Positions 42,053 through 55,030 of a DNA stretch of 64,000 bases are shown here, in pieces. Each line of letters opens with the position of its first letter. Within the stretch, counting starts at the first letter, position 1. Under the pieces are notes generated by a model that did no database searches, was not told the DNA's origin, and saw only the letters and a list, made by a program, of their open reading frames with translations. This DNA is from Candidatus Gallimonas faecium (lineage in GTDB: Bacteria > Bacillota > Clostridia > Christensenellales > Borkfalkiaceae). Both the position numbers and the translations under genes were made by a program. The DNA lies in NCBI GenBank assembly GCA_904378075.1, contig CAJFHA010000004.1, forward strand, positions 18,113 to 82,112, written 5' to 3'.

Positions 42053-42835
42053 TCAGCCGAGGGCGACGTCCAGAATCATCATCAGGCAGAACCCGATCAC
42101 CACGCCGGAGGTGGCGAGCGTCTTGTTCCCCGAAAAGCATTCGGGGATGAGCTCGGAACACACGACGGCGACCATCGCCCCCGCGGAAAAGGCGAGCGCC
42201 CACGGCAGAAGACTGCCGATCGCGCTTGCAGCCAGCGCGCCCAGCACGCATGCGGGCACTTCCACGGCGCCCGATCCCTGCGCGAACAGAAAACTGCGCA
42301 GCGGAGACATGCCGCGCGCCCGCATGGGAAAGGCGACGCACATGCCCTCGGGAAAATTCTGCACGGCGATGCCGAGCGCCAGCAAAAGCCCCGCAAGCGC
42401 ACCGCCCCCGCCCGCGGCAAGTCCCGCCCCCGCAGCGAACGCCACCCCCACCGCCATGCCCTCCGGCACGTTGTGCAGCGTGACGGCAAAGTACAAGAGA
42501 GCCGTGCGCTTATCGCCGATGGCGGTAAAAGAGCGCTGCGTACGGGAGAGCAGCAGATCGCTCCCTACAATGAACGCACCGCCCAGCAAAAAGCCGATCG
42601 TCACCGTAAGATAGGCGGGGAGCGGCCCTTCCGCCTCGATGGCTGGCAGAAGCAGGGAGAAGAAGCTCGCCGCGATCATGATGCCCGCGGAGGCCCCGAG
42701 GAGCACGGTGAGAACGCCCTCTTTGGGGCGTTTGGATAAAAAGACGCACGCCGCGCCGAGCGTCGTCATCGCATACATGACGAGGGAGGCGAGCAGCGCC
42801 TGAAGCCAAGCCTCCAGAGAAAAAAACCATTGCAT
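42053..42835 (-). CDS. zupT: ZIP-family (ZupT-like) metal transporter
   Basis: Track ORF 42053..42925; start MQWFFSLEAW at 42835. HNVPEGMAVG and QNFPEGMCVA motifs. Confidence 0.8.
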   Translation of the reverse strand: MQWFFSLEAWLQALLASLVMYAMTTLGAACVFLSKRPKEGVLTVLLGASAGIMIAASFFSLLLPAIEAEGPLPAYLTVTIGFLLGGAFIVGSDLLLSRTQRSFTAIGDKRTALLYFAVTLHNVPEGMAVGVAFAAGAGLAAGGGGALAGLLLALGIAVQNFPEGMCVAFPMRARGMSPLRSFLFAQGSGAVEVPACVLGALAASAIGSLLPWALAFSAGAMVAVVCSELIPECFSGNKTLATSGVVIGFCLMMILDVALG

Positions 42836-43015
42836 TCGTACGACTCCCGTTTGCCCGGAAAGGGCAGTCGCTCCATCGTATGCGCAAAGCGCCCCGCCGC
42901 GTTCCGCGCGCGTCCGCGTCCGCACGCGATTTTTTTCACGGAAATTTTACCGGGCGTCTTGACAAGCCGAAAAAGCCGTATTATAATAGAGAAAAGCAGT
43001 TTGGGGGGAAATACA

Positions 43016-43477
43016 ATGGTTGCATTGGGCGTTATCACGCTGATCCTGTTGGTATTCGCGCTCATCTTTTACGCGTATCTTGCCAACTATTCCGAGCATG
43101 ACGTCTCCTTTTTTATGAGCGTCAGCCTGATCCTGCTCGTCATGAACCTCTGCACGAATGCAAGCGGTTCGTTCGGGCTTTCCTGGCTCTACCTCGTCGT
43201 AGCGGTGCTCTTTCTCGGGCTCGGCTTTGCGGTGGACGCGCACGAATCGGTCGAATTTTACAAATCGATCGGTCCCTGGTTCAAATCGACATTCTCCGAC
43301 GTGACGCTTTTGGGCTGGAAAGCGCTCTCGCTGGTGTTCTTCCCCGCCGGGATCGCATGCTATTTTGCCATGTACAACGGCAAGCCCGCGCTTGCGCGCA
43401 CCTGCGGAAAGTGCGGGATCTGGGGGCTTCTGCTGTGGGCGGTCCTGCTTTGGGCGATTTTGGGACTTGCGCTTTGA
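43016..43477 (+). CDS. Hypothetical four-TM membrane protein
   Basis: Track ORF 42830..43477; start MVALGVITLILLVF at 43016. Hydrophobic helices throughout. Confidence 0.65.
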   Translation: MVALGVITLILLVFALIFYAYLANYSEHDVSFFMSVSLILLVMNLCTNASGSFGLSWLYLVVAVLFLGLGFAVDAHESVEFYKSIGPWFKSTFSDVTLLGWKALSLVFFPAGIACYFAMYNGKPALARTCGKCGIWGLLLWAVLLWAILGLAL

Positions 43478-43684: not shown

Positions 43685-43727
43685 AAAGGGCAGCCCTGAA
43701 ATTTGTTTCAGGGCTGCCCTTTTTTTG
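43685..43727. terminator. Bidirectional intrinsic terminator closing the fibre operon
   Basis: AAGGGCAGCCCTGAAA-TTTG-TTTCAGGGCTGCCCTT with flanking A and T runs. Confidence 0.8.
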
Positions 43728-43771: not shown

Positions 43772-44305
43772 TTACTCGGAAACCAATGTATTATCGATCA
43801 GCGTACCATTTCCGCCATACGCAGGCGTTGTGCTGCCATCAAAAATTCCGCCGTTCACAATGACCGTATCTGAACTCTGCGCCGTGTAGATATGAGGCTG
43901 ATTCCCGCTCCGGGTAAATGTACCGCTTTCAATCGTACAAGTGCTATTGCATTCCAAATAAACACAATACCGATTCTGCGCCGTGATCGTCACATTTCGA
44001 AGAGTAGCCGTCGAATTTCCTACAACCTGTACCCCTCCCCTCAACGTAACATTGTCGATCAATACATTTTTGGCACCCGATGTGACATAAAGCGGATAGG
44101 CACTATTTTCATAACTGTCTTGCTGGACGATACCGTTCTTCAGCGTGATCCCGTTCGCAGCCAATCCAAAGACGCTCCCATAAACACTGATTCCGCTTCC
44201 GATCGGTTCAACCGTTACGGTATGTCCGCCCAAATCGATCGTTACATCCGGAACAGTGATATAAGTATCAACCTTACTTTTTGAATGAAAGCTGATCATC
44301 GACAC
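43772..44305 (-). CDS. Signal-less right-handed beta-helix module, probably the detached C-terminus of the upstream giant protein
   Basis: 177 aa: VTIDLGGHTVTV, NVLIDNVTLRGG, ATLRNVTITAQN, TCTIESGTFT, TVIVNGGIFDG turns. No signal peptide or SD. GTG/ATG starts (44305/44299) lie inside the upstream gene, in the +1 frame. Confidence 0.6.
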   Translation of the reverse strand: MSMISFHSKSKVDTYITVPDVTIDLGGHTVTVEPIGSGISVYGSVFGLAANGITLKNGIVQQDSYENSAYPLYVTSGAKNVLIDNVTLRGGVQVVGNSTATLRNVTITAQNRYCVYLECNSTCTIESGTFTRSGNQPHIYTAQSSDTVIVNGGIFDGSTTPAYGGNGTLIDNTLVSE

Positions 44306-47300
44306 GCGCGATCTTCTGCTCTGCGTCCTCTGTGTTCGTATAATTTACACCCACAAAAAAGACTTGGGAATCGTTGTTATACGCAAACAGATCTTTGCAA
44401 GCGCCGTTGACCGTGATCCGATCTTCCGTTGTCGTGGAAATATTGTAGACGATCAGCGCGCCGCGCTTAAGCGTGCTGCCTTCGGGGACGGGAATTTCAG
44501 CAGGCTTATCATTGCTCATCCATACCTGCAGATTACCGACGATGCCCGCGGCAAAGGTCTCCCCCTGAATGCGTTCCGCTTCGTTCAGACAGTTTTGTAC
44601 AAGACCTGCATCATACAGCGTACCGACGATCCCGCCGCCGTCGTTCCCGCCGTCGATCGTGCCGCTGTTGCTGCACCCGATGACTTGGATCGGCGCCTTT
44701 GTCTGATAATCGGCGACCGCGCCGCTATAACGGATCCACCCGACGATCCCGCCCGTTCCGTACGCCGCCGTGTTTGTATTGACGATATTCGCCGTGTTCA
44801 CACAGTCTGTAACGGCGCCGTAATTCTGCTGTTCGCCGACGATCCCGCCGATCGACGCGCCATTGCCCGCCACCGCTCCGCTGTTGGTACAATCCGAAAC
44901 GTATGCAGAGCTGAGTCCGACGATTCCGCCCGCCCCCATACAGGCAGCCGTGACCGTCCCCGTATTCGTGCAGTTCGTGATATGCATTGCCTGCGATTCA
45001 TCCGCATAAATGCCGGTATAGTACGCCGCACCGACGATTCCGCCGACATTGCCGCTGGTTACGCTTGTTGCCGTAATCGACGCATGGTTGTTACAATTTT
45101 CGATCGTACCCGAGACGGTCATTCTGCCGACGATCCCGCCGTTCCCGCGCACCGCCGTCACGCTTCCGCTTTCTACCGTAACGCCGGACACCGTCGCGCC
45201 GTTGATCATCAGTCCCGCGACAGCCCCCACGCATTCGCCATCCGTAACGTTGACAGACACATTTGCAAGCGTCAGATCTTTCACGACGCCGCCGTTCAGT
45301 ACGCCGATCAAGCCAAAAGCATTGTCATCCCCGTATGCGCCGCTGAATGTCAGATTGGAAACGGTCTTTCCGTTTCCGTCGAATGTACCGCTGAACGACT
45401 TTCCGCCTTCTGCAAGCCCGCTGCCGCTGCGCATTCCCTGCCCGATGGGCGTCCAGGAAATGCCGGACAGATTGATGTCGGCTTCCAGAACAATATCGCA
45501 GACAATGTTCCCGCTCACCTTACCGAGATCGGCAAGCGCTGCCGCCGTCCAGACGTGCAGGACATCGTTCCGCCCGACGTCGCCAAGATCGCCCGTAAAA
45601 TCAGACTTCTCGTCTCCGCCGAGGAAATGAACCCCTTCGTACCAGTCGCATTCCGCGTCTTCCCTGAACAAACGATTGATGGAATAGACGTCCGTTCCGA
45701 TCGCAAAAATTTCATACCCGCTTTCATTTTCGATCGTCACATCCTGCGCGATTCTGCCGTCTTCCAACGCCCAATTGGAATTCGTGCTCTTTGTTGCCCA
45801 GTCATAGTAGGATACTGGGAATTCTCCCTTACATACAAGCTGCAAGCCTGCTCCGAGCGTTACGTTCAGCGCGTTTGTCGCGTCGACTTCCGCGTAGTCT
45901 CCTTGACTGGGGTTGACTCCGTACCCGTGAGAATGCAGCGTGACCGCAGAACCGGAAGGATTGATCCCGTTTGCAGGACGCGTACCGAGTTCTGCTTCCC
46001 CGTTGCATTCGATCGTTCCGCCGATCAGATTCAGCGTTCCCATCTTGGCGTCGATCCCCGCATACAGGCCCTTCACATAGGCGTTCCCTTCCATGGTAAG
46101 CGTTGCGGCATTGGGAACATAGATCCCCGTTCCGTCATGGCTGATCACGGAAGCATTCCCGGAAAGTTCGATCGTCATGGTGCCGTTCGTATTGTTGCCG
46201 TCCAGCCCGTAGAGGTATGCTTCGATTCCGGCATCATCCGTCATGACAACGCGCGCACCCGTTCCGAGGACCGGTCCGGACGGAACGACCATCTGCGCCG
46301 AATCCTTCATCAGGACGACCGATTTCGTGCGGACGCGCATGGCGTCTGCGCCCTCCTGATCCTGTTCCCCGTCGTTCAGAATATAATTCGTGTTCCCTGC
46401 AAAGGTGACTTCCGCCGCCTGCTCGGCAAGCATCCCGCAAATCTGATAGGACGCCGCATTGGAAAAGTCAATGGAGATCTCGCAGTCCGTAAACGTGACC
46501 TGAGCACCGTTGAAGTGCATCGCCTGCGACTGCGGCGTCTCATCATTTACGGCATCGTTGTCATAGTCGATATCGAAAGAAGTATTTTCAAATACGGCAC
46601 CCCCTCCCGAAACAACGACTGCGCTCATGGCGGCAGCATCGGCAGAGGCAACAAGCCCGTTTGCCCGGACGGACGAATCTGTCATGATAAGGGTGGCGCC
46701 CTGAACATTGAGCGCCGTTTTACCGGTCGCCTGTACAGCCACGTTTTCCAATGCGACCTGTCCCTGCGAACGCGTACGTGCCGCGAGGCCGTTCTGTGCC
46801 CCGACCGTCACGCCGTTTTCAATGGTCAGATTCCGCAGGGTGACATTCTGAGGAAGAGCGAGCGGCGCATCGTCGGACGTGGTAAGCAGCGCATCCCCGT
46901 ATCCTTCTATCACGACCGATTTCCCGGAAAGCGCATCGAAAGCATTGGCATCCAATTCATGCACGCCGTCCCCTGCAGAAAGAACGACTTCCGCTTCTTC
47001 GCTCTCCGCAGCCGCTTCGATCGCCTCGGTCAGCGTTCCGTAATCATTTCCGTCAAAATTGGCATTCCCCGTGAAGGCATTCGCCTGAACGGCGCGCACG
47101 ACAAGGGTGATCTCGCTGTTGACGCTCGACGCAGCGCCCCATGCAAGACCGATATGGAAGGAAAGTTCCGCGATCTGCCCCTGCTCTGTTCCCGCCGTCA
47201 CCCAGCCGCCGACGCCTTCGGTCTGCGTCAGGAAATAAGAAGAACCCGTGCCGTTCATGACGCCGCCGCCGAAGGTATAGGCGGAAGCGTTGCCGTCCAG

Positions 47301-47702
47301 CGAGAGATAGGCGACATACTTCATGGCGACCGTACTCGCGTTCTCAACGGTGAGCGTGAAATCGGCGGTCGTGCCCTGCGCAAGCGTCATGGTGATCTGC
47401 TCCCCGTTGACCGCCGCGCTGCCGTAGCCGTTTTCAAGCGTGATCGCGTTCTCCGAAGCGTTGCCGTCGCCCTGCGCGTTATCCGCAACGGACGTTGCGT
47501 CCGAATCCGCTTCCCCGCGGTAAGACATGGAATCGAGCGTCAGTGCGGACGAAATGCTGATCTCGCCGCTATGCACGTTGAAAGAATATTCCTGCGAGCT
47601 TGTAAACGCCGCAACCGTTGCGCCGACAATGAGCGCGCCGCAGCACCCGATGGTGAGCGCGGACATGACGATCGCTTTCGTTTTCCCCGTCTTCCCTTTC
47701 AT
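44274..47702 (-). CDS. Giant secreted protein B: TasA/camelysin-like N-domain plus beta-helix and GLUG-like repeats
   Basis: Track ORF 44274..47816; start MKGKTGKTKAIVMSALTIGCCGALIVGATVAAFTSSQEY at 47702 behind GAGGAG. The N-domain ends at VRAVQANAFTG. The C-terminal third has about seven G-G-I-V-G repeats. Confidence 0.8.
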   Translation of the reverse strand: MKGKTGKTKAIVMSALTIGCCGALIVGATVAAFTSSQEYSFNVHSGEISISSALTLDSMSYRGEADSDATSVADNAQGDGNASENAITLENGYGSAAVNGEQITMTLAQGTTADFTLTVENASTVAMKYVAYLSLDGNASAYTFGGGVMNGTGSSYFLTQTEGVGGWVTAGTEQGQIAELSFHIGLAWGAASSVNSEITLVVRAVQANAFTGNANFDGNDYGTLTEAIEAAAESEEAEVVLSAGDGVHELDANAFDALSGKSVVIEGYGDALLTTSDDAPLALPQNVTLRNLTIENGVTVGAQNGLAARTRSQGQVALENVAVQATGKTALNVQGATLIMTDSSVRANGLVASADAAAMSAVVVSGGGAVFENTSFDIDYDNDAVNDETPQSQAMHFNGAQVTFTDCEISIDFSNAASYQICGMLAEQAAEVTFAGNTNYILNDGEQDQEGADAMRVRTKSVVLMKDSAQMVVPSGPVLGTGARVVMTDDAGIEAYLYGLDGNNTNGTMTIELSGNASVISHDGTGIYVPNAATLTMEGNAYVKGLYAGIDAKMGTLNLIGGTIECNGEAELGTRPANGINPSGSAVTLHSHGYGVNPSQGDYAEVDATNALNVTLGAGLQLVCKGEFPVSYYDWATKSTNSNWALEDGRIAQDVTIENESGYEIFAIGTDVYSINRLFREDAECDWYEGVHFLGGDEKSDFTGDLGDVGRNDVLHVWTAAALADLGKVSGNIVCDIVLEADINLSGISWTPIGQGMRSGSGLAEGGKSFSGTFDGNGKTVSNLTFSGAYGDDNAFGLIGVLNGGVVKDLTLANVSVNVTDGECVGAVAGLMINGATVSGVTVESGSVTAVRGNGGIVGRMTVSGTIENCNNHASITATSVTSGNVGGIVGAAYYTGIYADESQAMHITNCTNTGTVTAACMGAGGIVGLSSAYVSDCTNSGAVAGNGASIGGIVGEQQNYGAVTDCVNTANIVNTNTAAYGTGGIVGWIRYSGAVADYQTKAPIQVIGCSNSGTIDGGNDGGGIVGTLYDAGLVQNCLNEAERIQGETFAAGIVGNLQVWMSNDKPAEIPVPEGSTLKRGALIVYNISTTTEDRITVNGACKDLFAYNNDSQVFFVGVNYTNTEDAEQKIARVDDQLSFKK

Positions 47703-47926
47703 ATAGCTCTTCTCCTCACTTGAATTTTGCTTTGGGCGGAACAGAGCGCTCCTGCGCGCCCCTTCCCGATCTGCCCGTCCGCGGCTTTCCGCGGACGGGA
47801 TTTTGTTTTGAACCATGCTCCCCGATCGGGCTCCCGCAAAAAGACAAAGTATTTCTGCGGGACAGCATCGGGTTTCACGCCCCGATTGGGGGCGTCGCCT
47901 TCGGCTCCTTTGAATGGCGCAAAGCC

Positions 47927-50900
47927 TTACGCCTGTTCTTCGGAAGCGGGAACGACCTGCCAGCCGCCTTCGACTTCAGACAGTTCGAATCCTTCCGCAA
48001 GGTACGCCTTGACAAAATCGGAAGTAAACGTGCCGCCTGCGATCTCAATGGCGGGAGCATCCGCCGCAACGGTGAATCTGAGCGTAACGTCAAACGTACC
48101 CGTGCATCCGGCTTCGACCTTCCAGACCGTCTTGGACTGCCAGCCTTCCCACATATTCTGAGCGCCGTATTCGATCTTTCCGGAAACTTTGCCCGTGAAA
48201 TCGGACGCAAAGACCACGGAAACACCGTCTTCATAAGTCGTGCTCATTCCATACCAAAGGTCAAAAGCAACCCCTGCCGGATTCGTACTGCTTGCGATGA
48301 TCTGCGTGTTGCCCTTGATCGTCGTCGTGCCGCAGTTGCTGGAAACAACATACTGCATATTCGGATCATCGGATGCATCCAGCACCATGTCCTGCAACGT
48401 CAGATCATTGTACTTCTGAATGAGGATATATCCCTCCGTAGCCTCGCTCTTGACCGAACCGTTCATCATGACAACGGTGGAGCCCTTCAGAAGCTGGAAC
48501 AAATTGGTCTCCGTACCCGCAGAACCGACGGTGGGATCGACGCCAACAAACGTCTTGCCCGCGAAATCGATGACGATGTTCTGTCCCGCAGAAACCTTAA
48601 CGCCGCTGCCATAGACGGTATCCTCTGCGGCAATGAACGTGATCGTCTTCTGCGTGTTATCGGTGGGAACGTCGGCTACCGCATATCCGAGCGAGGAATA
48701 TGCCATGCTGTCCATCATAACGACCATGCCGGCAGCCGCCGCTTCCTCGGGCGTACCCACATAGTAGGTGCCGTCAACTTCCCATGCGACATAGCCTTCA
48801 CCAAGGAAGCTCTCGGCGGGATTTTCCGTTGTGCTGTTGGCGGGATTGTAGTTAACAAACGCGCCGCCCGTAACATTAAACGTCGATTGACTGTTGTCAA
48901 CTTTATTTAAAATCCACGTTCTATTATCATACGATCCGATTGCAGAGAAAGTACCGCCATGGATATTCGCCGTTGCCTTGTTGTCGATTTGAACCGCCGT
49001 CAGCCCACACACATATGTGCCACCCGTGATAGTGAGCGTAGGACTGGGATAAGCGGGTTGCGTAGAACCGAGTCTGAACAGGTAGCCGAGTTCAGAATCT
49101 TCGCTCTGTATCATGCTGCCGTTGCCAATCGTAAATACAACATTGTTGTAAATATCGATCAAGCCGTCCTGATTGAAATACATGGTATAGCCGTTCAAAT
49201 CAATGTTGACCGTGCGCTTCGGCATAAGCGGTCCCTGAAAGCGCAAGGTATCGTTGACCGTGATGTCGTTGCCGAGCGTAAGATCCAAATTGGAAGTAAT
49301 GGTGAGGGGCTGCATCAGAAGCACTTCAATGCCGGCTTTCGTAAATTCACTGAGCTGTGCAAGCGTATATGCGTATGCAACCGTATCTTTGAACGTGCCG
49401 CCCGTGATCTTATAGGTCACTTTCTCGGCAATCGAATAATCGCCGACTGTTCGGACAAACCCGACAAGGTCGCCCTCGAACGTACCGCCCGTGATCGTCG
49501 TCAGACCGTCGCCGATCATTTCCTGATTGTAACCACTCAAAACAGCCATGGGACTGCCGACAAATTCACCGCCGGAAATTGTAAGCACATCCCAATTCAA
49601 AACGGATGCCTGCGCAGCGTTTTCGAATCTGCCGCCCAGAATGGTCAGCTCGCACATACCGTCGTTCTTAACAACATTCAGACCGCCGCGGAACGTACCG
49701 CCCGTGATCGTAAGAGACGCATTTCCACTCAAATCCTGGGGACCGGAATTGTCGATCAGGCTGCTATAGCCGTCTTTCATAACGATCAGTCCGTCGTTCA
49801 GCGTTGCCGTGCCATGGTTGTAGAAGGTATACCAGCTGTTGCCGTTGCCGTTGCCGCCATCAGGATCGTAAGTACCGGCAGCCTTACTTCTGGTCAACGT
49901 ACCGCCGTTCATAGTAAACACGCCGCTTGGATTGTTGTAGACAGCCGCCGTTCCATGCGCCAAAGCATCGACCACGGTGCCCTCTTCGATCGTAAGCGTA
50001 CCGTTGTTGATAACGGTATGATCGACTCCCGCTTTACCGCCGTCCGACGTGAGCGCCGTACCGGAAATCGTTGCCTCTGCGCCCGCACCTACTGTCAGCG
50101 CCGTGCCGTTTTGATTGACGACCTTGCTGTTGGAAAGCGTAAGCGTGCCGCCATTGAGGGTGATTGCACCGTTTTCCACCATGGAATTGACGATGGTGAC
50201 GTTTGCGTTGGTCGCCGTGACGGAGCCCTTGAAGGTGACGCCGTCGAACATTGCCGTGCCGCCCTCGGCCTCGGTCGCCGCGTTGGAAAACGCCATGAGC
50301 GACATGGTGGAGATGCCTGCGATCTGATCGTCGGAGATGGTCACGCTGCCGTTGATGGTCGCGTCCTCGATGCTCGCGTTGGAGGTAGCCACGACGTTGC
50401 CTTCGACGGTGACGTCTTTGAGCGTGACGTTTGCGGGGATGTAAAGCGTGCCGTTATCCGCAGCCTCGATGGTGGTGAGCGATTCGCCCGCACCGACAAC
50501 GGCAAGCGGCTTGTCGCCGAGCTGCGCAGCTTCTTCCTGCGTCAGCCAGGTCGCGTTCACGTTTCTGCCGAGGGAGACCGTCTCGTTATTGGCCGCCTGC
50601 ACCATGGCTTCGGCAAGTGTTTCGTACGTCGTATCGCCCACGGAAATGGTGCCCGTGTAAGCGTTCGCCTGCAGCGCTTCCAGAACGACCGTCATGGAAA
50701 CGGACTGCGGCTCGGTCACGCCCTCGCCTTCGGCGGGATCGAACACTTCAAGCGCGCTCCAGGGAAGGCTGATCTCGAACGCGAGCGTCGCGTCCTCTTC
50801 GGGGATCGCCTGCCCCGCTTCCACCGTCTGCCAGTCGAGCAGGGAGACTTCGTCGTCCTCCAGCGACTTGTTCACGCCGTCCACGGAGAACTGAAGTGCC

Positions 50901-51310
50901 TGACGAAGTTCGCTGCCGCCCTCGCTTACAAGAACGGTGACGGAATACTTCATGTCCACCGCGCTTGCGTTGGTGACGGCAAGTTCGAATGCCGCGCCGT
51001 CGCCGAGGGACATGTTGTTGATCGTGATATTGCTGCCGTCCGTAATGGCAACCGTGCCGCCCTGCGGAAGGGTTGCCGTGTTGTCGATGACCGTCGCTTC
51101 TTCGCGTTCGTTCGTGGACTGCCCCTGCGACCACGCCTGCGTCAGAGTAAGCTCGCCCTGCACGTCGATCTTGCCCGTGTTGACGCCGATCTGGTACTCG
51201 CGTCTCGAGGTGAACAGCGCGAACGTCGCGCCCAAGATCACCGCAAGGCACATGACCACAACGAGCACGGAAAGAAGGATAGCTCTGCTTTTCGTCTGTT
51301 TGCTTTGCAT
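47927..51310 (-). CDS. Giant secreted protein A: TasA/camelysin-like N-domain plus ~900-aa beta-helix passenger
   Basis: 1127 aa: MQSKQTKSRAILLSVLVVVMCLAVILGATFALFTSRREY...LEALQANAYTG. This is followed by repeated NGGTLT / ITGGTF / NIDLNGYT turns. GAGGAG RBS. Confidence 0.8.
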   Translation of the reverse strand: MQSKQTKSRAILLSVLVVVMCLAVILGATFALFTSRREYQIGVNTGKIDVQGELTLTQAWSQGQSTNEREEATVIDNTATLPQGGTVAITDGSNITINNMSLGDGAAFELAVTNASAVDMKYSVTVLVSEGGSELRQALQFSVDGVNKSLEDDEVSLLDWQTVEAGQAIPEEDATLAFEISLPWSALEVFDPAEGEGVTEPQSVSMTVVLEALQANAYTGTISVGDTTYETLAEAMVQAANNETVSLGRNVNATWLTQEEAAQLGDKPLAVVGAGESLTTIEAADNGTLYIPANVTLKDVTVEGNVVATSNASIEDATINGSVTISDDQIAGISTMSLMAFSNAATEAEGGTAMFDGVTFKGSVTATNANVTIVNSMVENGAITLNGGTLTLSNSKVVNQNGTALTVGAGAEATISGTALTSDGGKAGVDHTVINNGTLTIEEGTVVDALAHGTAAVYNNPSGVFTMNGGTLTRSKAAGTYDPDGGNGNGNSWYTFYNHGTATLNDGLIVMKDGYSSLIDNSGPQDLSGNASLTITGGTFRGGLNVVKNDGMCELTILGGRFENAAQASVLNWDVLTISGGEFVGSPMAVLSGYNQEMIGDGLTTITGGTFEGDLVGFVRTVGDYSIAEKVTYKITGGTFKDTVAYAYTLAQLSEFTKAGIEVLLMQPLTITSNLDLTLGNDITVNDTLRFQGPLMPKRTVNIDLNGYTMYFNQDGLIDIYNNVVFTIGNGSMIQSEDSELGYLFRLGSTQPAYPSPTLTITGGTYVCGLTAVQIDNKATANIHGGTFSAIGSYDNRTWILNKVDNSQSTFNVTGGAFVNYNPANSTTENPAESFLGEGYVAWEVDGTYYVGTPEEAAAAGMVVMMDSMAYSSLGYAVADVPTDNTQKTITFIAAEDTVYGSGVKVSAGQNIVIDFAGKTFVGVDPTVGSAGTETNLFQLLKGSTVVMMNGSVKSEATEGYILIQKYNDLTLQDMVLDASDDPNMQYVVSSNCGTTTIKGNTQIIASSTNPAGVAFDLWYGMSTTYEDGVSVVFASDFTGKVSGKIEYGAQNMWEGWQSKTVWKVEAGCTGTFDVTLRFTVAADAPAIEIAGGTFTSDFVKAYLAEGFELSEVEGGWQVVPASEEQA

Positions 51311-51429
51311 GTTTCTATTCTCCTCATTATAATTTTCGTTTTATATGCACGGCGTTCCCCCTTTGCGGACTTGCGCCGTCGTTTCTTGTGCTTTGTTGCT
51401 CCTTAAAATGACGGGAACCGCCGAAAACG

Positions 51430-52086
51430 TCAGTTCAGTCCGAGCGCCTCGTTCAGATCGGCGTCGGATGCGTTCGCCTGACCCGCATAGATCGTGAACT
51501 CGATGGAAGCGTTCGTGATGAAGTCCTCCGCCGCGCCGTCGTCCCCGAAGGTCTGTTCGGCGTCTTTATCGAGCTCCACGGTAATCTCGAGCGTGACGGA
51601 ACTTCCGGGCGCGATCTCCGTTTCCGCCCAGGTCCCGAACGAAAATGCGCCGCCGCCTTCCGCCGTGATCGCATAGTTCAAGCTGTCTTCCGCGCCTTCC
51701 GCGCCCGTGACGCTTGGCGTGTAGTCCACGCGGAACCGCGCGGCGGATTTACCCGTGTTGGTGATGGTGAGCGTGAACTCCGCCTTATCCCCCGGGACCA
51801 TCTGCGACAGCGAAATGCTGCCGTTCTGCCCGTCGATGGAGGCGCTGCCGCCCGTTGCGAAATTCAGGCTGCCCGTGGGCTGTGCGTCCGTGCTCTCGGG
51901 CGTCAGACTGTACAGCGTCAGGCTGTCCGTGTCAAACTCGGCGGCAATGTCCACGCTGCCCGTTGTGACGGTCACTTCGCGCTGTTTCTGCGTGCCGAAG
52001 AGCGCAAACGTGGCGCCGACGATGATCGCCGCGCACAGCAGGACGGTGAGTCCCGCCGTCAGCAAAGCCGTTCTCTTGCTTTTCAT
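51430..52086 (-). CDS. TasA/camelysin-like secreted fibre-subunit candidate (218 aa)
   Basis: N-terminus MKSKRTALLTAGLTVLLCAAIIVGATFALFGTQKQREVTVTTGSVDI, parallel to TasA GGGTWAAFND...ASGTLDL. Beta-rich body. Confidence 0.75.
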   Translation of the reverse strand: MKSKRTALLTAGLTVLLCAAIIVGATFALFGTQKQREVTVTTGSVDIAAEFDTDSLTLYSLTPESTDAQPTGSLNFATGGSASIDGQNGSISLSQMVPGDKAEFTLTITNTGKSAARFRVDYTPSVTGAEGAEDSLNYAITAEGGGAFSFGTWAETEIAPGSSVTLEITVELDKDAEQTFGDDGAAEDFITNASIEFTIYAGQANASDADLNEALGLN

Positions 52087-52132
52087 ATCCCTTTATCTCC
52101 TTATATGAAGATTTTTTTCTTATAACAAAGGC

Positions 52133-52795
52133 TCAGACCTTCTGCGTCGCCGTTACGGTGACGTTGAAAGAAAGGTCCGCGTTCATGATGGTCGCGCCCG
52201 TTCCGTCGTCGAGCACGTCCGATTCCAGAGGAAGTTCGACCTTCAGCAAAAAGGTCCGCGTTTCGTTTGCCGCGGAGACCGAACCGAGCGGGAGCGCGCC
52301 GCGCTCTACCATGCCCGCAAGCGTGGTGCCGGGATCGGTGAGCACGTTGCCCTCCGCGTCCGTGACCGTAACGAGCAGTTTGCCGGCAAGACGCTGTTCG
52401 GGAGAATTGTCCGCAGGCGTTTCGGCGTAAAAGAATGCGACCGAATAGTCGAACGCCACGCTGCCGCGGTTTTCGATCTCGAGCGTCGCTTCCTGCCAGA
52501 CGCCGGGAACGCTGTTGCCGCCGAACGTAAAGACGGTATCGTCCGGATCGTCCGTCTGCGCTTCGGTGAGGTCAACGCGCGCCGTATCGGTGGCGACCGC
52601 CTGCAGGACGCCGTTCTCATCCGCCGTGCGTCCCGTCAGATTGGTGCGCGCCAATCCGATCTCCAGCGTGCCCGCCTGCAGGTAATTGACGACCGTCGCC
52701 GAATCGGAAAACAGCGCGAAGGACGCCGTGACCAGAATGACGGCGCTCATCAGCGCGACGAGAACGGACATGACGATGGCTTTGGATTTGTTCAT
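52133..52795 (-). CDS. TasA/camelysin-like secreted fibre-subunit candidate (220 aa)
   Basis: N-terminus MNKSKAIVMSVLVALMSAVILVTASFALFSDSATVVNYLQAGTLEIGL, the closest match in the window to the TasA signal/N-terminal motif. Confidence 0.78.
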   Translation of the reverse strand: MNKSKAIVMSVLVALMSAVILVTASFALFSDSATVVNYLQAGTLEIGLARTNLTGRTADENGVLQAVATDTARVDLTEAQTDDPDDTVFTFGGNSVPGVWQEATLEIENRGSVAFDYSVAFFYAETPADNSPEQRLAGKLLVTVTDAEGNVLTDPGTTLAGMVERGALPLGSVSAANETRTFLLKVELPLESDVLDDGTGATIMNADLSFNVTVTATQKV

Positions 52796-52810
52796 ACCGC
52801 CCTCCTTGCC

Positions 52811-53683
52811 TTATTCTTCGGCGGGCGGCGTCGCGGGCTGCGCGCTCTCTTCTTCCGCAGGCTGCTGCGCAGGCGGTTCTGCTTCCGATGCCTGCTGCTG
52901 CGCCGCGGCGGCTTCCTCCGCCGCCTTCTTTTCGGCTTCGCGCTTGAGCCTGCGCTGTTCGCGGCGGGCGGCTTTCTTTTCCTCCTCGCGGCGGGCGCGC
53001 TCCTCTGCGAAGTCGCTGTATGTAATATCGATGATGTTCTTGATATGGTCGATGGTCTCCGCCGATTCCACGCGCACGTCGATGGGCTTTTCCTTGATGT
53101 TCAGCCCCTCTTTGTCCGTGTAGGCGATGAAATCGTTGTTCTGCACGGTCAGGCGCGCCGTGATGCGGCCGCGGCGCAGCAGGATGCGGACGAGCAGCTT
53201 CTTTCCGTAATAGACGCTCGCGCTCCTGTCGTTGATGACTTTCTTTGCGCCCTCTTTGGCTTCGGCATACGCGACGATCTCGTCCACGCAACTCTTTTCG
53301 ATGGGCGAGAGCTGTTCGTACGCTTCGGGATAGGGCACCGTCTCGTTGCGGCGCAGAAGGACCATGCCCTCGGTATCGACGGGCTCCTCCTCCGGCTCTT
53401 CTTCAACCTCCGGCTCCTCAACGGGCGCGGGCGGTTCCTCGGTCGGTGCGGGCTGCGGTGCGGGCTCTTCGACCGGCTGCGGCACGGTACGGGAAGCGGC
53501 TTCGGCGATCGCCGCCTTATCCCCGACGCGCACAAGCACATACGCCGTATCGTCCACGACGACGACTCTGCCCGCATCCCCCTCTTTCTTCGCGCGCGCA
53601 AGCGAGACGATCAGCCAGACGACGAGCGCCAGAGCGACGACGCAAATGAGTACGACGCACACGATGAACAATGCTTGAGTCAT
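52811..53683 (-). CDS. Membrane-anchored protein of unknown function (TM, P/E-rich spacer, globular core, K/E/R-rich then A/Q/P/E-rich tail)
   Basis: 290 aa. ATGA overlap with the sipW stop. Composition is unlike an antisense shadow. Confidence 0.7.
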   Translation of the reverse strand: MTQALFIVCVVLICVVALALVVWLIVSLARAKKEGDAGRVVVVDDTAYVLVRVGDKAAIAEAASRTVPQPVEEPAPQPAPTEEPPAPVEEPEVEEEPEEEPVDTEGMVLLRRNETVPYPEAYEQLSPIEKSCVDEIVAYAEAKEGAKKVINDRSASVYYGKKLLVRILLRRGRITARLTVQNNDFIAYTDKEGLNIKEKPIDVRVESAETIDHIKNIIDITYSDFAEERARREEEKKAARREQRRLKREAEKKAAEEAAAAQQQASEAEPPAQQPAEEESAQPATPPAEE

Positions 53684-54429
53684 TTTTCTTCACCTCTCTT
53701 TAATTCCTCCAGCTCCGCGCGCAGGCGCTCGATCTCCCGCTCGCGGGCATCCGATTCCTCTTGCTGCTTCCGATGCCTGTCCGCGCGCACGATGCGCGCG
53801 ATATTGAAAATTTCGTAAATCAGAATGAGTGCCGCGGGCACGATGAGGCACACCACGATGCCCGTCGTCGAACACAGGAAATACAGGAATGCGCCCAGCC
53901 CGTAATTGCTCCAGGTCACTTTGCCGATGACGTCGTCCTCGCCGATCGGCTGCGCGTCGGGGGCATCGTTGGCGTCTCCCTGCGTGGTGAACGTAAAGCC
54001 CGTTTCCGTCCCGTTTATTTCAACAATGCGGTGGGTATTGACGACGGGATCGTCCTGCGTCCCCGTGCGCGTCCAGTCATTGAACGTGATGATGTCGCCC
54101 ACCTGCAGCGATGCGAAAAATTCCTGCCGCTGCGCCTCGTCCTCGGGCGCGACCTGAATGCCCACAATGGAGCGGGTGCGGAGGGAATCCTCCCGATCGC
54201 CCTCCATGGAGCCCGTGAGCACGATGCGGTACTGCATGCCGCCGACGGTCAGCGTCTCGCCCTGCGCGCGGTAGCAGATCGCAACGATGAGCGCGGCGAC
54301 CGCCGCGACCAGCACGACGGCGATCACGATGCCCGAAACGACGGACAAGACGCGCGCCGCGCCGCTCTTTTTTCTGCCTGCGGCAGGTTCGTCCCCCGCC
54401 GGCATGGGAGCCATCACGGGCGCCGTCAT
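53680..54429 (-). CDS. sipW: Signal peptidase I, archaeal/ER type (SipW-like)
   Basis: Track ORF 53680..54468. The ATG at 54429 overlaps the upstream stop (ATGA). LTGSMEG (Ser), NTHRIVEI (His) and QGDANDAPD boxes. Second TM plus a charged coiled-coil tail. Confidence 0.82.
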   Translation of the reverse strand: MTAPVMAPMPAGDEPAAGRKKSGAARVLSVVSGIVIAVVLVAAVAALIVAICYRAQGETLTVGGMQYRIVLTGSMEGDREDSLRTRSIVGIQVAPEDEAQRQEFFASLQVGDIITFNDWTRTGTQDDPVVNTHRIVEINGTETGFTFTTQGDANDAPDAQPIGEDDVIGKVTWSNYGLGAFLYFLCSTTGIVVCLIVPAALILIYEIFNIARIVRADRHRKQQEESDAREREIERLRAELEELKRGEEK

Positions 54430-54887
54430 ACAGCGCCCTCCAGCGCATACTGCGCCGTAACGGTGCATGCCGCGCCCTGCGCCTCGTTGCCGACGCCGGC
54501 GTCCATGCGATAGGTCACCGTAAAGGCAAATTCACCCTCGACGTCCGCGCGGTATTCCTTGCCCGCGCAGTCCGCGAGCCCGCCATCATACAGCACCTCG
54601 TCTCCCGCCGCAATGCGGACGGAGAGGAAGCGGGCGAGCGCGCCGTCGTCCGCCGTCAGCGAAACGACAAGCGAAGCAGGGGAAGCGGACTCCCCCCGAT
54701 AGGAACAGGCGCGCTCCTGCCCGGGCGCAAGGCCGTCGATGACGACCTCCTCGCGGAAGGTATCCCCTTCGCCCTCGAGCGCCAGCCCGTTGTTCTGATT
54801 GGTCATGAGATATGCTGCGCCCAGTCCCGTGCAGACGAGCACGACGGCAAGAGCGGCAATGAGTACGATCAGCGCAGACTTTTTCAT
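54426..54887 (-). CDS. Small secreted beta-rich protein, first gene of the operon (positional analogue of TapA)
   Basis: 153 aa: MKKSALIVLIAALAVVLVCTGLGAAYLMTNQ signal-like N-terminus. GGGAG RBS. Confidence 0.7.
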   Translation of the reverse strand: MKKSALIVLIAALAVVLVCTGLGAAYLMTNQNNGLALEGEGDTFREEVVIDGLAPGQERACSYRGESASPASLVVSLTADDGALARFLSVRIAAGDEVLYDGGLADCAGKEYRADVEGEFAFTVTYRMDAGVGNEAQGAACTVTAQYALEGAV

Positions 54888-54999
54888 GAGCGATCTCCCG
54901 TATCGGAACGGTGGGAATCCCGGACATGGGTCCCGCCGTCAGGCGCGCCTCGCGCATATACGCGCGGAGCGTTTTTTTCTCCGACACTTTTACGCTTAT

Positions 55000-55030
55000 A
55001 TTATAACATACACCCCCCCCCGATTGTCAA
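55000..55030 (-). promoter_or_regulatory. Fibre-operon promoter, TTGACA-19 nt (contains G9)-TATAAT with TG extension
   Basis: Minus strand reads TTGACAATCGGGGGGGGGTGTATGTTATAAT. -35 at 55030-55025 and -10 at 55005-55000, about 113 nt upstream of the ATG at 54887. Confidence 0.6.
55013..55021. repeat. C9/G9 homopolymer
   Basis: Nine consecutive C on the plus strand. This agrees with the track translation ...TYTPPR (ACC CCC CCC CGA). It is the longest G/C run I noticed in the window. Confidence 0.9.

Follow-up and report, generated by a model that had tools for sequence, protein, structure and literature searches.

The tapA-sipW-tasA operon of Bacillus subtilis and the sipW-tasA-capP-calY operon of B. 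cereus each carry a dedicated ER-type signal peptidase gene, and so does the locus described here, found in a 64,000-nt stretch of DNA (the window) from an as yet uncultured lineage of gut Clostridia, a relative of Ca. Gallimonas. The locus shares with the Bacillus tasA operons a signal peptide type, a cleavage context (G-x-T-aromatic-A↓x-F) and the donor-strand region, and its small first gene (g1) occupies the position of tapA before sipW. Unlike the Bacillus proteins, its subunits are too divergent for the Pfam M73 and TasA equivalog thresholds and number four or five paralogues rather than one or two, two of them fused to ~1000-aa passengers. Compared with TasA, they also have ~35 extra residues inserted behind the donor strand.

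In characterised relatives, subunits assemble by a donor-strand mechanism, with tip, anchor and nucleator roles assigned to particular proteins (PMC9674648, PMC10151520, PMC11821415, PMC12337348, PMC11580942). Haloarchaeal Tafi loci (TafA-G) encode a peptidase, major and minor pilins, a two-domain tip and a membrane anchor, and they resemble our locus in the dedicated peptidase, the pilin paralogues, a TM-anchored pilin-like candidate anchor, putative tips that join an N-terminal pilin-like domain to a C-terminal adhesion domain, and variable structural genes beside conserved enzymatic ones (PMC11821415, PMC12337348). Our locus differs in being bacterial, in using Sec-type rather than Tat signals, in having neither a DUF5305 (TafG) match nor a regulator gene in the operon, in its two ~5x larger beta-helix/GLUG passengers, and in the TM helix of g1, which is N-terminal rather than C-terminal.

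Clostridium perfringens sipW-bsaA-bsaB-bsaC encodes two TasA-like paralogues and a large secreted BsaC with an adhesion-type vWA domain; the Bsa oligomers are held at the membrane by an anchor, and a model in which donor-strand assembly is coupled to SipW has been put forward (PMC11580942, PMC7395162). C. perfringens lacks g1-like and g3-like genes, BsaA is isopeptide-locked, and export needs type IV pilus proteins, genes for which were not seen in the scanned part of the window. AbpX/AbpA loci combine TasA-superfamily subunits with a peptidase, minor subunits, predicted tips and accessories, and their bacterial versions include SLH or LPXTG anchor proteins, for which entry into the fibre through donor-strand complementation is predicted (bioRxiv 10.64898/2026.01.04.697558, PMC9245690). 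The peptidase associated with AbpX has ten TM helices and the one here (g2) two hydrophobic segments; SLH, LPXTG and sortase are absent from our locus, and the AbpX sequence match is weak (E=0.14, profile of the shared N-domain against PDB sequences). Chaperone-usher pili offer a further analogy, since in FimH a pilin-type domain ties an adhesin to a donor-strand polymer, but neither the fold family nor the assembly machinery (periplasmic chaperone, outer-membrane usher) is related. In those pili a terminator subunit stops growth at the base.

The original prediction that this architecture was undescribed was thus too strong: the Tafi, AbpX and bsa layouts are analogous, and proteins joining a TasA-like N-domain to a long passenger form a very large metagenomic family (7,470 clusters at 50% identity). 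The parts are real, and the operon type has close described relatives.

Operon layout and the signal peptidase

The locus reads as a minus-strand operon running from promoter to terminator (55030-43685), and we infer that its genes are co-transcribed. Its features are as follows.

55000..55030, minus strand: promoter, read directly, with TTGACA (55030-55025), a 19-nt spacer and an extended -10, TG-n-TATAAT (55008-55000)
54950..54967, minus strand: hairpin formed by the palindrome CGCGCGTATATGCGCG within the 5' leader of ~100 nt; an A-run comes before it on the transcribed strand
54426..54887, minus strand: g1, 153 aa, N-terminal TM helix (single hydrophobic segment, residues 1-31) and ~120-aa beta-rich domain
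53680..54429, minus strand: g2, 249 aa, ER/archaeal-type signal peptidase I (SipW-like) with a charged helical cytoplasmic tail
52811..53683, minus strand: g3, 290 aa, N-terminal TM segment, Pro/Glu-rich linker, conserved ~120-aa domain and Lys/Arg/Glu-rich helix
52133..52795, minus strand: g4, 220 aa, divergent TasA-superfamily subunit, predicted cleavage TASFA↓LF
51430..52086, minus strand: g5, 218 aa, TasA-superfamily subunit, predicted cleavage GATFA↓LF
47927..51310, minus strand: g6, 1127 aa, TasA-like N-domain (residues 1-~220, 50651-51310) and ~900-aa Gly/Thr/Asn-rich passenger
47971..50184, minus strand: strain-variable, low-G+C passenger cassette in g6 (residues ~375-1113)
47774..47799, no strand assigned: GC-rich 11-bp hairpin in the g6-g7 spacer
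44274..47702, minus strand: g7, 1142 aa as read, TasA-like N-domain (47043-47702) and GLUG/ZmpB-like repeat passenger, frameshift-truncated
44247..44302, minus strand: indel that breaks g7, 55 nt long in the window and 138 nt in L007 (blastn)
43772..44305, minus strand: g8, 177-aa ORF with GTG start, the out-of-frame C-terminal beta-helix part of g7
43685..43722, no strand assigned: 17-bp hairpin at the operon end, terminator-like in both directions

The boundaries largely agree with the original prediction. Its near-consensus promoter lies at exactly 55000-55030 and is read off the sequence directly; both hexamers are perfect consensus, and a scan limited to 16-18-nt spacers missed it because the spacer is 19 nt. 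The terminator called strong does contain a 17-pair hairpin (43685-43722), but its minus-strand tail is merely TTTAAGTTT, the good T-run lying on the plus strand. Every gene from g1 to g7 is preceded by a Shine-Dalgarno-like sequence. As predicted, ATGA overlaps of 4 nt occur at 54426/54429 and 53680/53683; not all gaps are short, with 119 nt between g5 and g6 and 224 nt between g6 and g7. With these two intervals the giants g6 and g7 could be regulated separately, which counts against our best model. Of the GC-rich hairpins in the longer spacer, the one at 47774..47799 has no U-tract on the transcribed strand and is possibly an RNA processing or stability element.

All eight minus-strand reading frames first listed are present, but they make up seven genes. 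We rejected g8 as an eighth: it has no usable ribosome-binding site or signal peptide, and in L007, a 99%-identical strain, the corresponding sequence forms the C-terminal end of one continuous 1337-aa g7. Residues 1-1141 of g7 are 98% identical to the 1337-aa protein P0159, and g8, which matches Pfam Beta_helix, is 92% identical to residues 1167-1337 of the same protein. At the break the frame changes from -3 to -1 (tblastn), a shift caused by the difference in indel length.

The peptidase identification holds up well. The motifs LTGSMEG, NTHRIVEI and GDANDAPD occur in the g2 translation, TIGR02228 matches at 67.7 bits (cutoff 51.85), and on alignment the Ser/His/Asp triad (S74, H133, D152) is unchanged across homologues down to ~30% identity, so a dedicated SipW-type peptidase is present. 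The SipW Bacillus equivalog matches below cutoff (89 bits vs 190). Hydrophobic segments at residues 21-58 and 176-215 give two TM segments. Homology and synteny suggest that the g2 peptidase cleaves the substrates encoded beside it.

A shared SipW-type signal peptide and TasA-superfamily domain

A SipW-type signal peptide followed by a TasA-superfamily beta-sandwich domain is common to four proteins of the locus, g4-g7. BLASTP aligns g5 with the full g6 N-domain (E=4e-18) and g6 with g7 over residues 1-300 (E=3e-27), while hhalign joins the g4 family to the g5/g6/g7 family (98.2%, E=5e-14, 183 columns). The common N-terminus noticed earlier thus reflects true homology rather than chance. The by-eye alignment of that N-terminus to the TasA signal peptide and donor strand is likewise reproduced: the N-domain profile matches the TasA precursor (hhalign 91.9%, E=6.8e-7) over the signal peptide, donor strand and first strands only, with the cleavage sites and an S/T-G-x-L/I-D motif in register and G-A-T-F-A↓L-F aligned with TasA A27↓A28. 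All four paralogues retain the stretch that lines up with the TasA donor strand. Against PDB sequences, the same profile finds TasA (8aur, E=0.008; 5of1, E=0.017).

Family models and structure predictions speak partly for and partly against the link to TasA. TIGR04088 (cutoff 19) matches g4 (23-25 bits) and g7 (19.9 bits), scores below cutoff for g6 and does not match g5. Pfam Peptidase_M73 falls below its gathering score for each protein of the locus (g4, 20.0 bits against 22.5) and is matched weakly by 17 of the 19 g5 family members; g5 also matches DUF11, fn3_5 and Ig-like models. The AF2 model of g5 (pLDDT 81.8; residues 23-41 below 50) retrieves the TasA fibre 8aur first among PDB structures in Foldseek (E=1.1e-3, prob 1.0, TM 0.40) and the AbpA pilus 7ueg second. 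For g6 residues 1-250 (pLDDT 84; residues 33-43 below 50), TasA is not in the Foldseek top 50 and AbpA ranks 12th; TM-scores to TasA reach only ~0.4. The hhalign match, the g5 Foldseek result and TIGR04088 in two of the four proteins support the link to TasA; the scores below cutoff, the low TM-scores, the outcome of the g6 search and the short span of the hhalign alignment count against our best model. The two short proteins, g4 and g5, are TasA-superfamily subunits as originally proposed; we regard g5 as the candidate shaft subunit and g4 as a candidate minor or adapter subunit.

Giant passengers and the conserved proteins g1 and g3

Each giant joins an N-domain homologous to the small subunits to a passenger of ~900-1100 aa, and here too the first reading stands, on BLASTP and hhalign homology for the N-domains and on GLUG and beta-helix evidence for the passengers. 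The g7 passenger has profile matches to a GLUG motif and a ZmpB/D-like stretch. The g6 passenger has no Pfam or PDB match, and we read it from homologues as beta-helix-like. Homologous passengers elsewhere follow an ordinary Sec signal and carry SLH (52/118), dockerin (5) or autotransporter (3) anchors. In this locus no protein has an LPXTG, SLH or Tat motif, and the giants have no other cell-wall anchor.

The passenger of g6 has been swapped wholesale between near-identical strains. Its cassette is unmatched in L007, although the flanks are 99% identical, and its G+C is 0.50-0.55 against 0.60-0.63 in the N-domain part. Orthologues with the same g6 N-terminus range from 985 to 1400 aa. A five-gene core with one or two giants recurs in seven related loci (L002, L003, L007, L009-L012).

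The proteins flanking the peptidase in the core are g1 and g3. "Secreted protein" falls short for g1, which has a TM segment, no TIGR04088 match and no SipW-cognate signal. A profile of seven g1 orthologues aligns with the TasA-like family (hhalign 85.4%, E=5.8e-6), residues 46-145 covering only the C-terminal two-thirds of the domain; g1 is thus probably a TasA-like core that is anchored by its TM helix and lacks a donor strand, and a candidate membrane anchor/terminator or peptidase accessory. It is the first gene in all loci compared and is translationally coupled to sipW. The start of g3 overlaps the end of sipW, which it directly follows in every locus compared. The positive-inside rule predicts an N-out/C-in topology for g3 and therefore a mostly cytoplasmic protein, which sits poorly with its description as a membrane component, nearly its whole mass being predicted cytoplasmic. 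It has no match in Pfam, NCBIfam or PDB, and the best 120 of its 161 homologues, all at least 54% identical, are named nothing beyond "hypothetical protein"; g3 is a clade-restricted accessory protein. TapA does not match g1, nor CapP/DUF4047 g3.

A fibre model and its alternatives

We consider it fairly probable that the locus encodes a sortase-independent, SipW-type-peptidase-dependent TasA-superfamily surface fibre bearing giant adhesins. Of the expanded SipW-dependent fibre in the original prediction, the peptidase, two subunits and two giants are in place; fibre formation and SipW dependence are suggested by homology and synteny.

That same basis for polymerisation leaves space for dedicated secretion without a fibre, in which the peptidase processes its own substrate set, the N-domain serves as a stalk or wall/membrane-association module and the products are monomeric surface or secreted proteins. 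The modest structural likeness to TasA fits this reading, as do the fusion protein P0114, which stands alone at locus L008 with no peptidase or small subunit nearby, and C. perfringens BsaB and the large BsaC, which are not in long polymers (PMC11580942). We nevertheless think it unlikely: every locus conserves two subunit domains of ~190 aa that stand bare and have no other function, all four paralogues keep the stretch matching the TasA donor strand, which the monomer models leave unplaced, and g6 and g7 have no other anchor. Less likely still is a TasA/BsaA-type biofilm matrix, in which g4 and g5 would form bundled, released fibres that the giants decorate or cross-link along their length, possibly isopeptide-locked as in BsaA. 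The characterised bacterial relatives TasA, CalY and BsaA are matrix fibres (PMC9674648, PMC11580942), and the subunit domain of g6 and g7 is complete (donor strand and acceptor core), so it could sit anywhere in a polymer. However, g1 looks like a membrane-tethered, acceptor-only unit, which suggests fibres attached to the cell, and strain-level passenger swaps are typical of adhesins and antigens.

The role of g1 is a separate matter, and it is possible, if doubtful, that g1 and g3 are halves of a split DUF5305-type peptidase accessory, g1 then not being the fibre anchor. Together their topology is that described for DUF5305 (extracellular beta-sandwich, TM, TM, cytoplasmic alpha/beta domain), a protein that accompanies or is fused to the peptidase in Tafi/AbpX loci (bioRxiv 10.64898/2026.01.04.697558), and in all loci sipW shares 4-8 nt with each of its neighbours g1 and g3. 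Yet DUF5305 is matched by neither g1, g3 nor their concatenation, and g1 aligns with the TasA-like core. The latter match is compatible with an accessory role, since in Tafi systems this fold occurs in proteins with several different roles.

In the surface-fibre model that we favour, the proteins would be exported by Sec and then cut by the peptidase at G-A-T-F-A↓L-F. The cut would release the N-terminal strand, which AlphaFold leaves unplaced in the monomer, to insert into the beta-sandwich of a neighbouring subunit, the donor-strand exchange known from TasA, AbpA and Tafi fibres. Tip, shaft and anchor roles, and the polarity of the fibre, are proposed by analogy. The shaft would consist of g5, with g4 as adapter, and g6 and g7 would join the same polymer through their N-domains, holding their passengers off the cell. 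Most likely they would serve as alternative tips and initiate assembly; in a shaft, steric clashes could arise if many subunits bore a ~1000-aa passenger, a point against our best model. At the base, g1, with its TM helix and acceptor fold but no donor strand or SipW-type signal, would accept the final donor strand and fasten the fibre to the membrane. Both g1 and g3, whose conserved domain is predicted cytoplasmic, are translationally coupled to the peptidase gene and would probably form a complex with its product. Recombination would exchange the passengers between strains, and such strain-level exchange fits adhesins or surface antigens under diversifying selection.

Operon layout and gene content

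The operon is a compact row of minus-strand genes between 55030 and 43685. Its seven members are called g1 to g7 here, and one further open reading frame (ORF) lies at its end:

54426-54887, minus strand: g1, protein with an N-terminal transmembrane (TM) segment, 153 aa
53680-54429, minus strand: g2, SipW-type signal peptidase, 249 aa
52811-53683, minus strand: g3, membrane protein with a charged C-terminal part, 290 aa
52133-52795, minus strand: g4, bare TasA-like subunit, 220 aa
51430-52086, minus strand: g5, bare TasA-like subunit, 218 aa
47927-51310, minus strand: g6, TasA-like N-terminal domain followed by a long passenger, 1127 aa
44274-47702, minus strand: g7, the second such giant, 1142 aa
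43772-44305, minus strand: ORF of 177 aa overlapping the end of g7

The genes are tightly packed. ATGA overlaps join g1 to g2 and g2 to g3, the gaps from g3 to g7 measure 15, 46, 119 and 224 nt in order, and a Shine-Dalgarno-like sequence precedes every gene from g1 to g7. The promoter that the original prediction placed upstream is present, with both hexamers perfect (TTGACA at 55030-55025, TG-n-TATAAT at 55008-55000); a scan with 16-18-nt spacers missed it because the hexamers lie 19 nt apart. The operon ends in a 17-bp hairpin (43685-43722) whose better T-run is on the opposite strand. Within the ~100-nt leader between promoter and g1 lies a perfect palindromic hairpin, CGCGCGTATATGCGCG, at 54950-54967, with an A-run before it and no match in Rfam. 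The 224-nt spacer between g6 and g7 (47703-47926) holds a GC-rich 11-bp hairpin at 47774-47799 and two more stem-loops, none with a U-tract after it on the transcribed strand; such hairpins might set the ratio of g6 to g7 by acting on RNA processing or stability. Searches of the whole window for Rfam families, tRNAs and tandem repeats found none.

The surrounding DNA is chromosomal and belongs to an uncultured member of the Clostridia, with Ca. Gallimonas faecavium as the closest named genome found; the genes scanned elsewhere in the window are housekeeping genes, among them those for PurL, RecJ, PNPase and RelA/SpoT. Just downstream, a plus-strand ORF (42830-43477) encoding a 215-aa multi-pass membrane protein without a family match converges on the operon; in two related contigs (L001 and L007) the gene called at this site is 153 aa long. 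Two long plus-strand ORFs lie opposite g7 (44364-47723, 1119 aa) and g6 (48959-51406, 815 aa). Both are Arg/Ala-rich and of low complexity, and they look like by-products of high G+C rather than genes.

The 177-aa ORF, which had been counted as an eighth gene, is not an independent gene: it holds the last ~170 codons of g7, a C-terminal beta-helix part (Pfam Beta_helix) cut off from the rest of the gene. A 99%-identical strain (contig L007) carries the same operon with seven genes, and its intact g7, a 1337-aa protein (P0159), aligns with g7 at 98% identity across residues 1-1141 and with the 177-aa ORF at 92% identity across residues 1167-1337. Nucleotide alignment locates an indel at 44247-44302, where the window has 55 nt and L007 has 138 nt, and the g7 reading frame therefore shifts. 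The ORF starts with GTG and has no signal peptide, and no ribosome-binding site lies at a distance that could serve it. A reading of it as a separate paralogue of the g6 passenger was rejected, since the two are similar only at the level of repeats. The break in g7 may be a genuine change in this strain, inactivating or phase-like, or else an assembly error.

Profile matches identify g2 as a SipW homologue and not as its equivalog. The protein scores 67.7 bits against the archaeal/ER-type signal peptidase I model TIGR02228 (cutoff 51.85; model positions 3-155 of 158), and matches the Bacillus SipW equivalog model NF046067 over its full length at 89.2 bits, far under the cutoff of 190. The three peptidase motifs singled out in the original prediction contain S74 (GSM), H133 (THRI) and D152 (GDAN), which are invariant in six g2 homologues with identities down to ~30% and which we take to be equivalent to SipW S47, H87 and D106. 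Hydrophobic segments flank the catalytic domain on both sides, and the second is followed by a charged, cytoplasmic helical tail (…EIxRLRAxLEE…; window 53680-53800). This tail motif is kept even in the ~30%-identity peptidase homologues of loci L004-L006, and such conservation suggests that the tail has a role beyond membrane anchoring.

TasA-like domains in four proteins and a probable partial copy in a fifth

The N-terminal domains of g4, g5, g6 and g7 are homologous along their whole length. BLASTP aligns g5 with g6 residues 1-250 at E=4e-18, and g6 with g7 at E=3e-27 across the first ~300 residues, beyond which the two giants diverge. The g4 family is more distant and matches the g5/g6/g7 family by hhalign at 98.2%, E=5e-14, over 183 columns. 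Against the SipW-cognate signal model TIGR04088 (cutoff 19 bits), g4 (25.4) and g7 (19.9) score above and g6 (15.9) below, and neither g5 nor g1 matches; all four proteins g4-g7 nonetheless align with each other in the signal region. The Pfam family Peptidase_M73 (PF12389, gathering score 22.5 bits) gave 20.0 bits for g4, 16.5 for g5 and no match for g6 or g7, with sub-threshold matches in 17 of 19 relatives that are confined to the N-terminal ~50 residues.

Profile searches lead to TasA. A 19-sequence profile of the domain, searched against PDB sequences with hmmsearch, found the TasA chains 8aur (E=0.008) and 5of1 (E=0.017), followed by AbpX at 0.14; an earlier 5-sequence profile had not found TasA. 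The TasA match falls in two collinear blocks: one is the strand pair "PGD…N.S", the other the terminal strand "A.Q.N". By hhalign, the 19-sequence profile aligned with part of the TasA precursor at 91.9%, E=6.8e-7, over 78 columns; the precursor sequence used agrees with TasA chain fragments from the PDB in two long stretches. This alignment reproduced the one proposed in the original prediction, pairing G-A-T-F-A/L-F-T-S with G-G-T-W-A/A-F-N-D (the slash marks the predicted cleavage site) and T-G-K-I-D-V with S-G-T-L-D-L. Beyond these paired stretches comes an insertion of ~35 residues that is particular to this domain family.

The AlphaFold model of g5 (pLDDT 81.8) retrieved the TasA fibre first and the archaeal bundling pilus AbpA second in a Foldseek search of the PDB, at TM ~0.4 and E~1e-3, with the Sulfolobus thread lower in the list. 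The model of g6 residues 1-250 is a beta-sandwich (pLDDT 84) for which AbpA ranked 12 and TasA was absent from the top 50. Scores for both are lowered because the models include the signal helix. Right after that helix, both models fall below a pLDDT of 50, in the very stretch that aligns with the TasA donor strand, residues 28-38 of TasA (PMC9674648). The candidate N-terminal donor strand, LFTSRREYQIGV..., and its paralogous counterparts are strand-like and conserved after the cleavage site. We conclude that the g4-g7 domains are divergent members of the TasA superfamily, outside the Pfam camelysin family as now delimited. The best Foldseek match to the g6 N-domain was the uncharacterised Bdellovibrio protein Bd1399 (PDB 8okh; E=8.8e-5, TM ~0.2), listed for the g5 model too and perhaps related, at a distance, to the TasA-like fold.

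A partial copy of the domain is probably present in g1. This protein has a single N-terminal hydrophobic segment (TM residues 1-31), no SipW-cognate signal, and Leu at the position where the others have their -1 Ala. A profile of seven g1 orthologues matches the TasA-like family (hhalign 85.4%, E=5.8e-6), with residues 46-145 aligned to the C-terminal two-thirds of the domain and the donor strand and first hairpin missing; g1 alone, or with three orthologues, reached only 3.5-4.7% against the TasA-like profile.

The remaining protein, g3, has an N-terminal TM helix with Arg/Lys after it, a Pro/Glu-rich linker, a strongly conserved domain of ~120 residues and a Lys/Arg/Glu-rich helix. The positive-inside rule predicts that linker, conserved domain and charged helix are cytoplasmic. 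No relatives beyond its own clade were detected among the homologues listed or in Pfam, NCBIfam and the PDB. Assignments to CapP/DUF4047, TonB or other entries of these databases were rejected because the matches were compositional only. Kinship with a 495-aa membrane protein of the distant locus L004 was also rejected (BLASTP E=1.2, hhalign 0.7%).

Exchangeable passengers and a large fusion family

The giants are modular proteins in which the TasA-like subunit domain occupies the place of the wall anchor in related proteins. Beyond ~220 residues, both run into "…G.T.Y.TL.EA…", a sequence that begins many surface proteins of gut Firmicutes directly after an ordinary Sec signal peptide. Among 118 homologues of g6, ~37 have a SipW-type N-domain, 52 have SLH instead, 5 a dockerin and 3 an autotransporter barrel. 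The g7 passenger consists of GLUG/ZmpB-like repeats and a right-handed beta-helix; the g6 passenger has no match among PDB sequences. LPXTG, SLH and Tat motifs are all absent from g6 and g7, which therefore leaves the N-domain as the only candidate attachment device. A [LIV]PxTG-like motif occurs in none of the eight ORFs, and the gene calls around the operon include no sortase.

Passengers are exchanged as cassettes, as judged from a strain swap, base composition and length range. The stretch at 47971-50184 (g6 residues ~375-1113) has no counterpart in L007, which holds unrelated sequence in its place (L007 7415-9784) between flanks that are 99% identical. The swapped stretch has a G+C of 0.50-0.55, against 0.60-0.63 in the rest of the operon, and orthologues sharing the g6 N-terminus range from 985 to 1400 aa. 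So clean a swap, in strains otherwise 99% identical, points to adhesion that is specific to the strain, or to immune or phage evasion, in a common poultry-gut lineage.

The operon recurs in relatives with its order kept: a g1-like gene, the peptidase, a g3-like gene, two subunits of ~210-220 aa and one or two giants of 590-1520 aa. This arrangement is found in L002 (Ca. Gallimonas faecavium, chicken gut), L003, L007, L009, L010 and L012, and L011 has the core, with little contig beyond it. In L002, L003, L007 and L009-L012, each of the first three genes overlaps its neighbour. A more distant locus, L004 9995-20349, has two SipW-type peptidase genes. Its 495-aa protein has a cytoplasmic part, a TM segment and a beta-rich C-terminus, and in its 1126-aa beta-helix protein a SipW-looking N-terminus leads directly into the passenger. 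The L004 proteins of 238, 488 and 1126 aa have N-termini that are SipW-type by eye; at hhalign 3-18% we excluded them as evidence for TasA-like domains, and no link between L004 and the operon described here was statistically significant.

Fusion of the domain to a passenger is very common in metagenomes. The N-domain profile, run against 1.84 billion representatives, matched 7,470 clusters (50% identity) at E<=1e-3, of which 1,304 reach E<=1e-30. Most of the best-scoring clusters are 400-2,000 aa long; the newly returned best matches have a median of 641 aa, and only 13 of the 148 examined are 260 aa or shorter. In the fusion proteins examined the domain always spans residues 1 to ~220, and passengers sampled include beta-helix, GLUG/M26_N and BspA-type LRR. 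No source searched has a name for these fusion proteins. They are not always encoded in such operons, as a lone 953-aa fusion protein beside spo0A shows (L008 8001-10862; within 8 kb, neither a peptidase nor a small subunit). A tblastn search of PLSDB plasmids with the g6 N-domain found no match.

A possible adhesin-bearing fibre

The operon probably encodes a fibre that carries adhesins. The observed parts are a dedicated peptidase of the ER type, four homologous TasA-superfamily domains whose signals are of the type that goes with it (two of these domains being fused to anchor-less giant passengers) and, in g1, what is probably a TM-bearing partial domain. The mechanism is proposed by analogy with TasA (PMC9674648), TapA (PMC10151520), BsaA (PMC11580942) and Tafi (PMC11821415, PMC12337348). 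Cleavage at A/L(A)-F would free a donor strand, which then fills out the sandwich of the following subunit, and g5, together with g4, would build the shaft. The giants would be incorporated by way of their N-domains; most plausibly they would serve as alternative tips from which assembly begins. Growth would take place at the membrane, one newly cleaved subunit at a time. With no strand to donate and perhaps a retained TM helix, g1 would accept the last strand and anchor the fibre.

In Bacillus and C. perfringens, the core of peptidase and TasA-like protein is already known. Archaeal Tafi and AbpX-type loci have been described with a peptidase, major and minor subunits, a two-domain tip and a membrane anchor. 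Their tip, a pilin-like plus an adhesion domain, is matched by g6 and g7 at the level of domain architecture; their TM anchor with a pilin-like acceptor domain may have its counterpart in g1, with its TM segment and probable partial domain. Those loci also have DUF5305, described as a peptidase accessory (bioRxiv 10.64898/2026.01.04.697558), and g3, perhaps with g1, may instead or also supply peptidase accessory subunits. The combined topology of g1 and g3 is that of DUF5305, but sequence support is absent: neither protein, nor their concatenation, matches it. Sortase-assembled Gram-positive pili differ from the proposed fibre in both their LPXTG signal and their pilus sortase. In the literature searched, we found no bacterial system with ~1000-aa beta-helix/GLUG adhesin passengers fused to a TasA-like subunit domain, and no description of the conserved g1-peptidase-g3 module, of cassette-like passenger exchange or of a fusion family of such size.

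A broader proposal, which we advance tentatively and as one piece, is that TasA-like donor-strand fibres could be the stalk of widespread, undescribed, sortase-independent adhesive pili in many anaerobic Bacillota, beyond the biofilm matrix. Very large, exchangeable adhesin passengers would plug in through an N-terminal subunit domain, with the 7,470 clusters as the adhesin repertoire. The adhesin tip would initiate assembly, SipW cleavage at the membrane would set its pace, and the TM-anchored g1, which lacks a donor strand, would end it.

The locus is a good lead for experiments: its peptidase with two accessory proteins, two subunits and a pair of adhesins form a compact set of parts that can be tested. 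Hardly any of the very many members of the fusion family in metagenomes has a name, so one characterised member would annotate thousands of proteins. If the fibre model is right, gut Clostridia would have a means of surface display without sortase, S-layer homology domains or an outer membrane, and the role of TasA-type fibres would widen from matrix scaffold to adhesin carrier.
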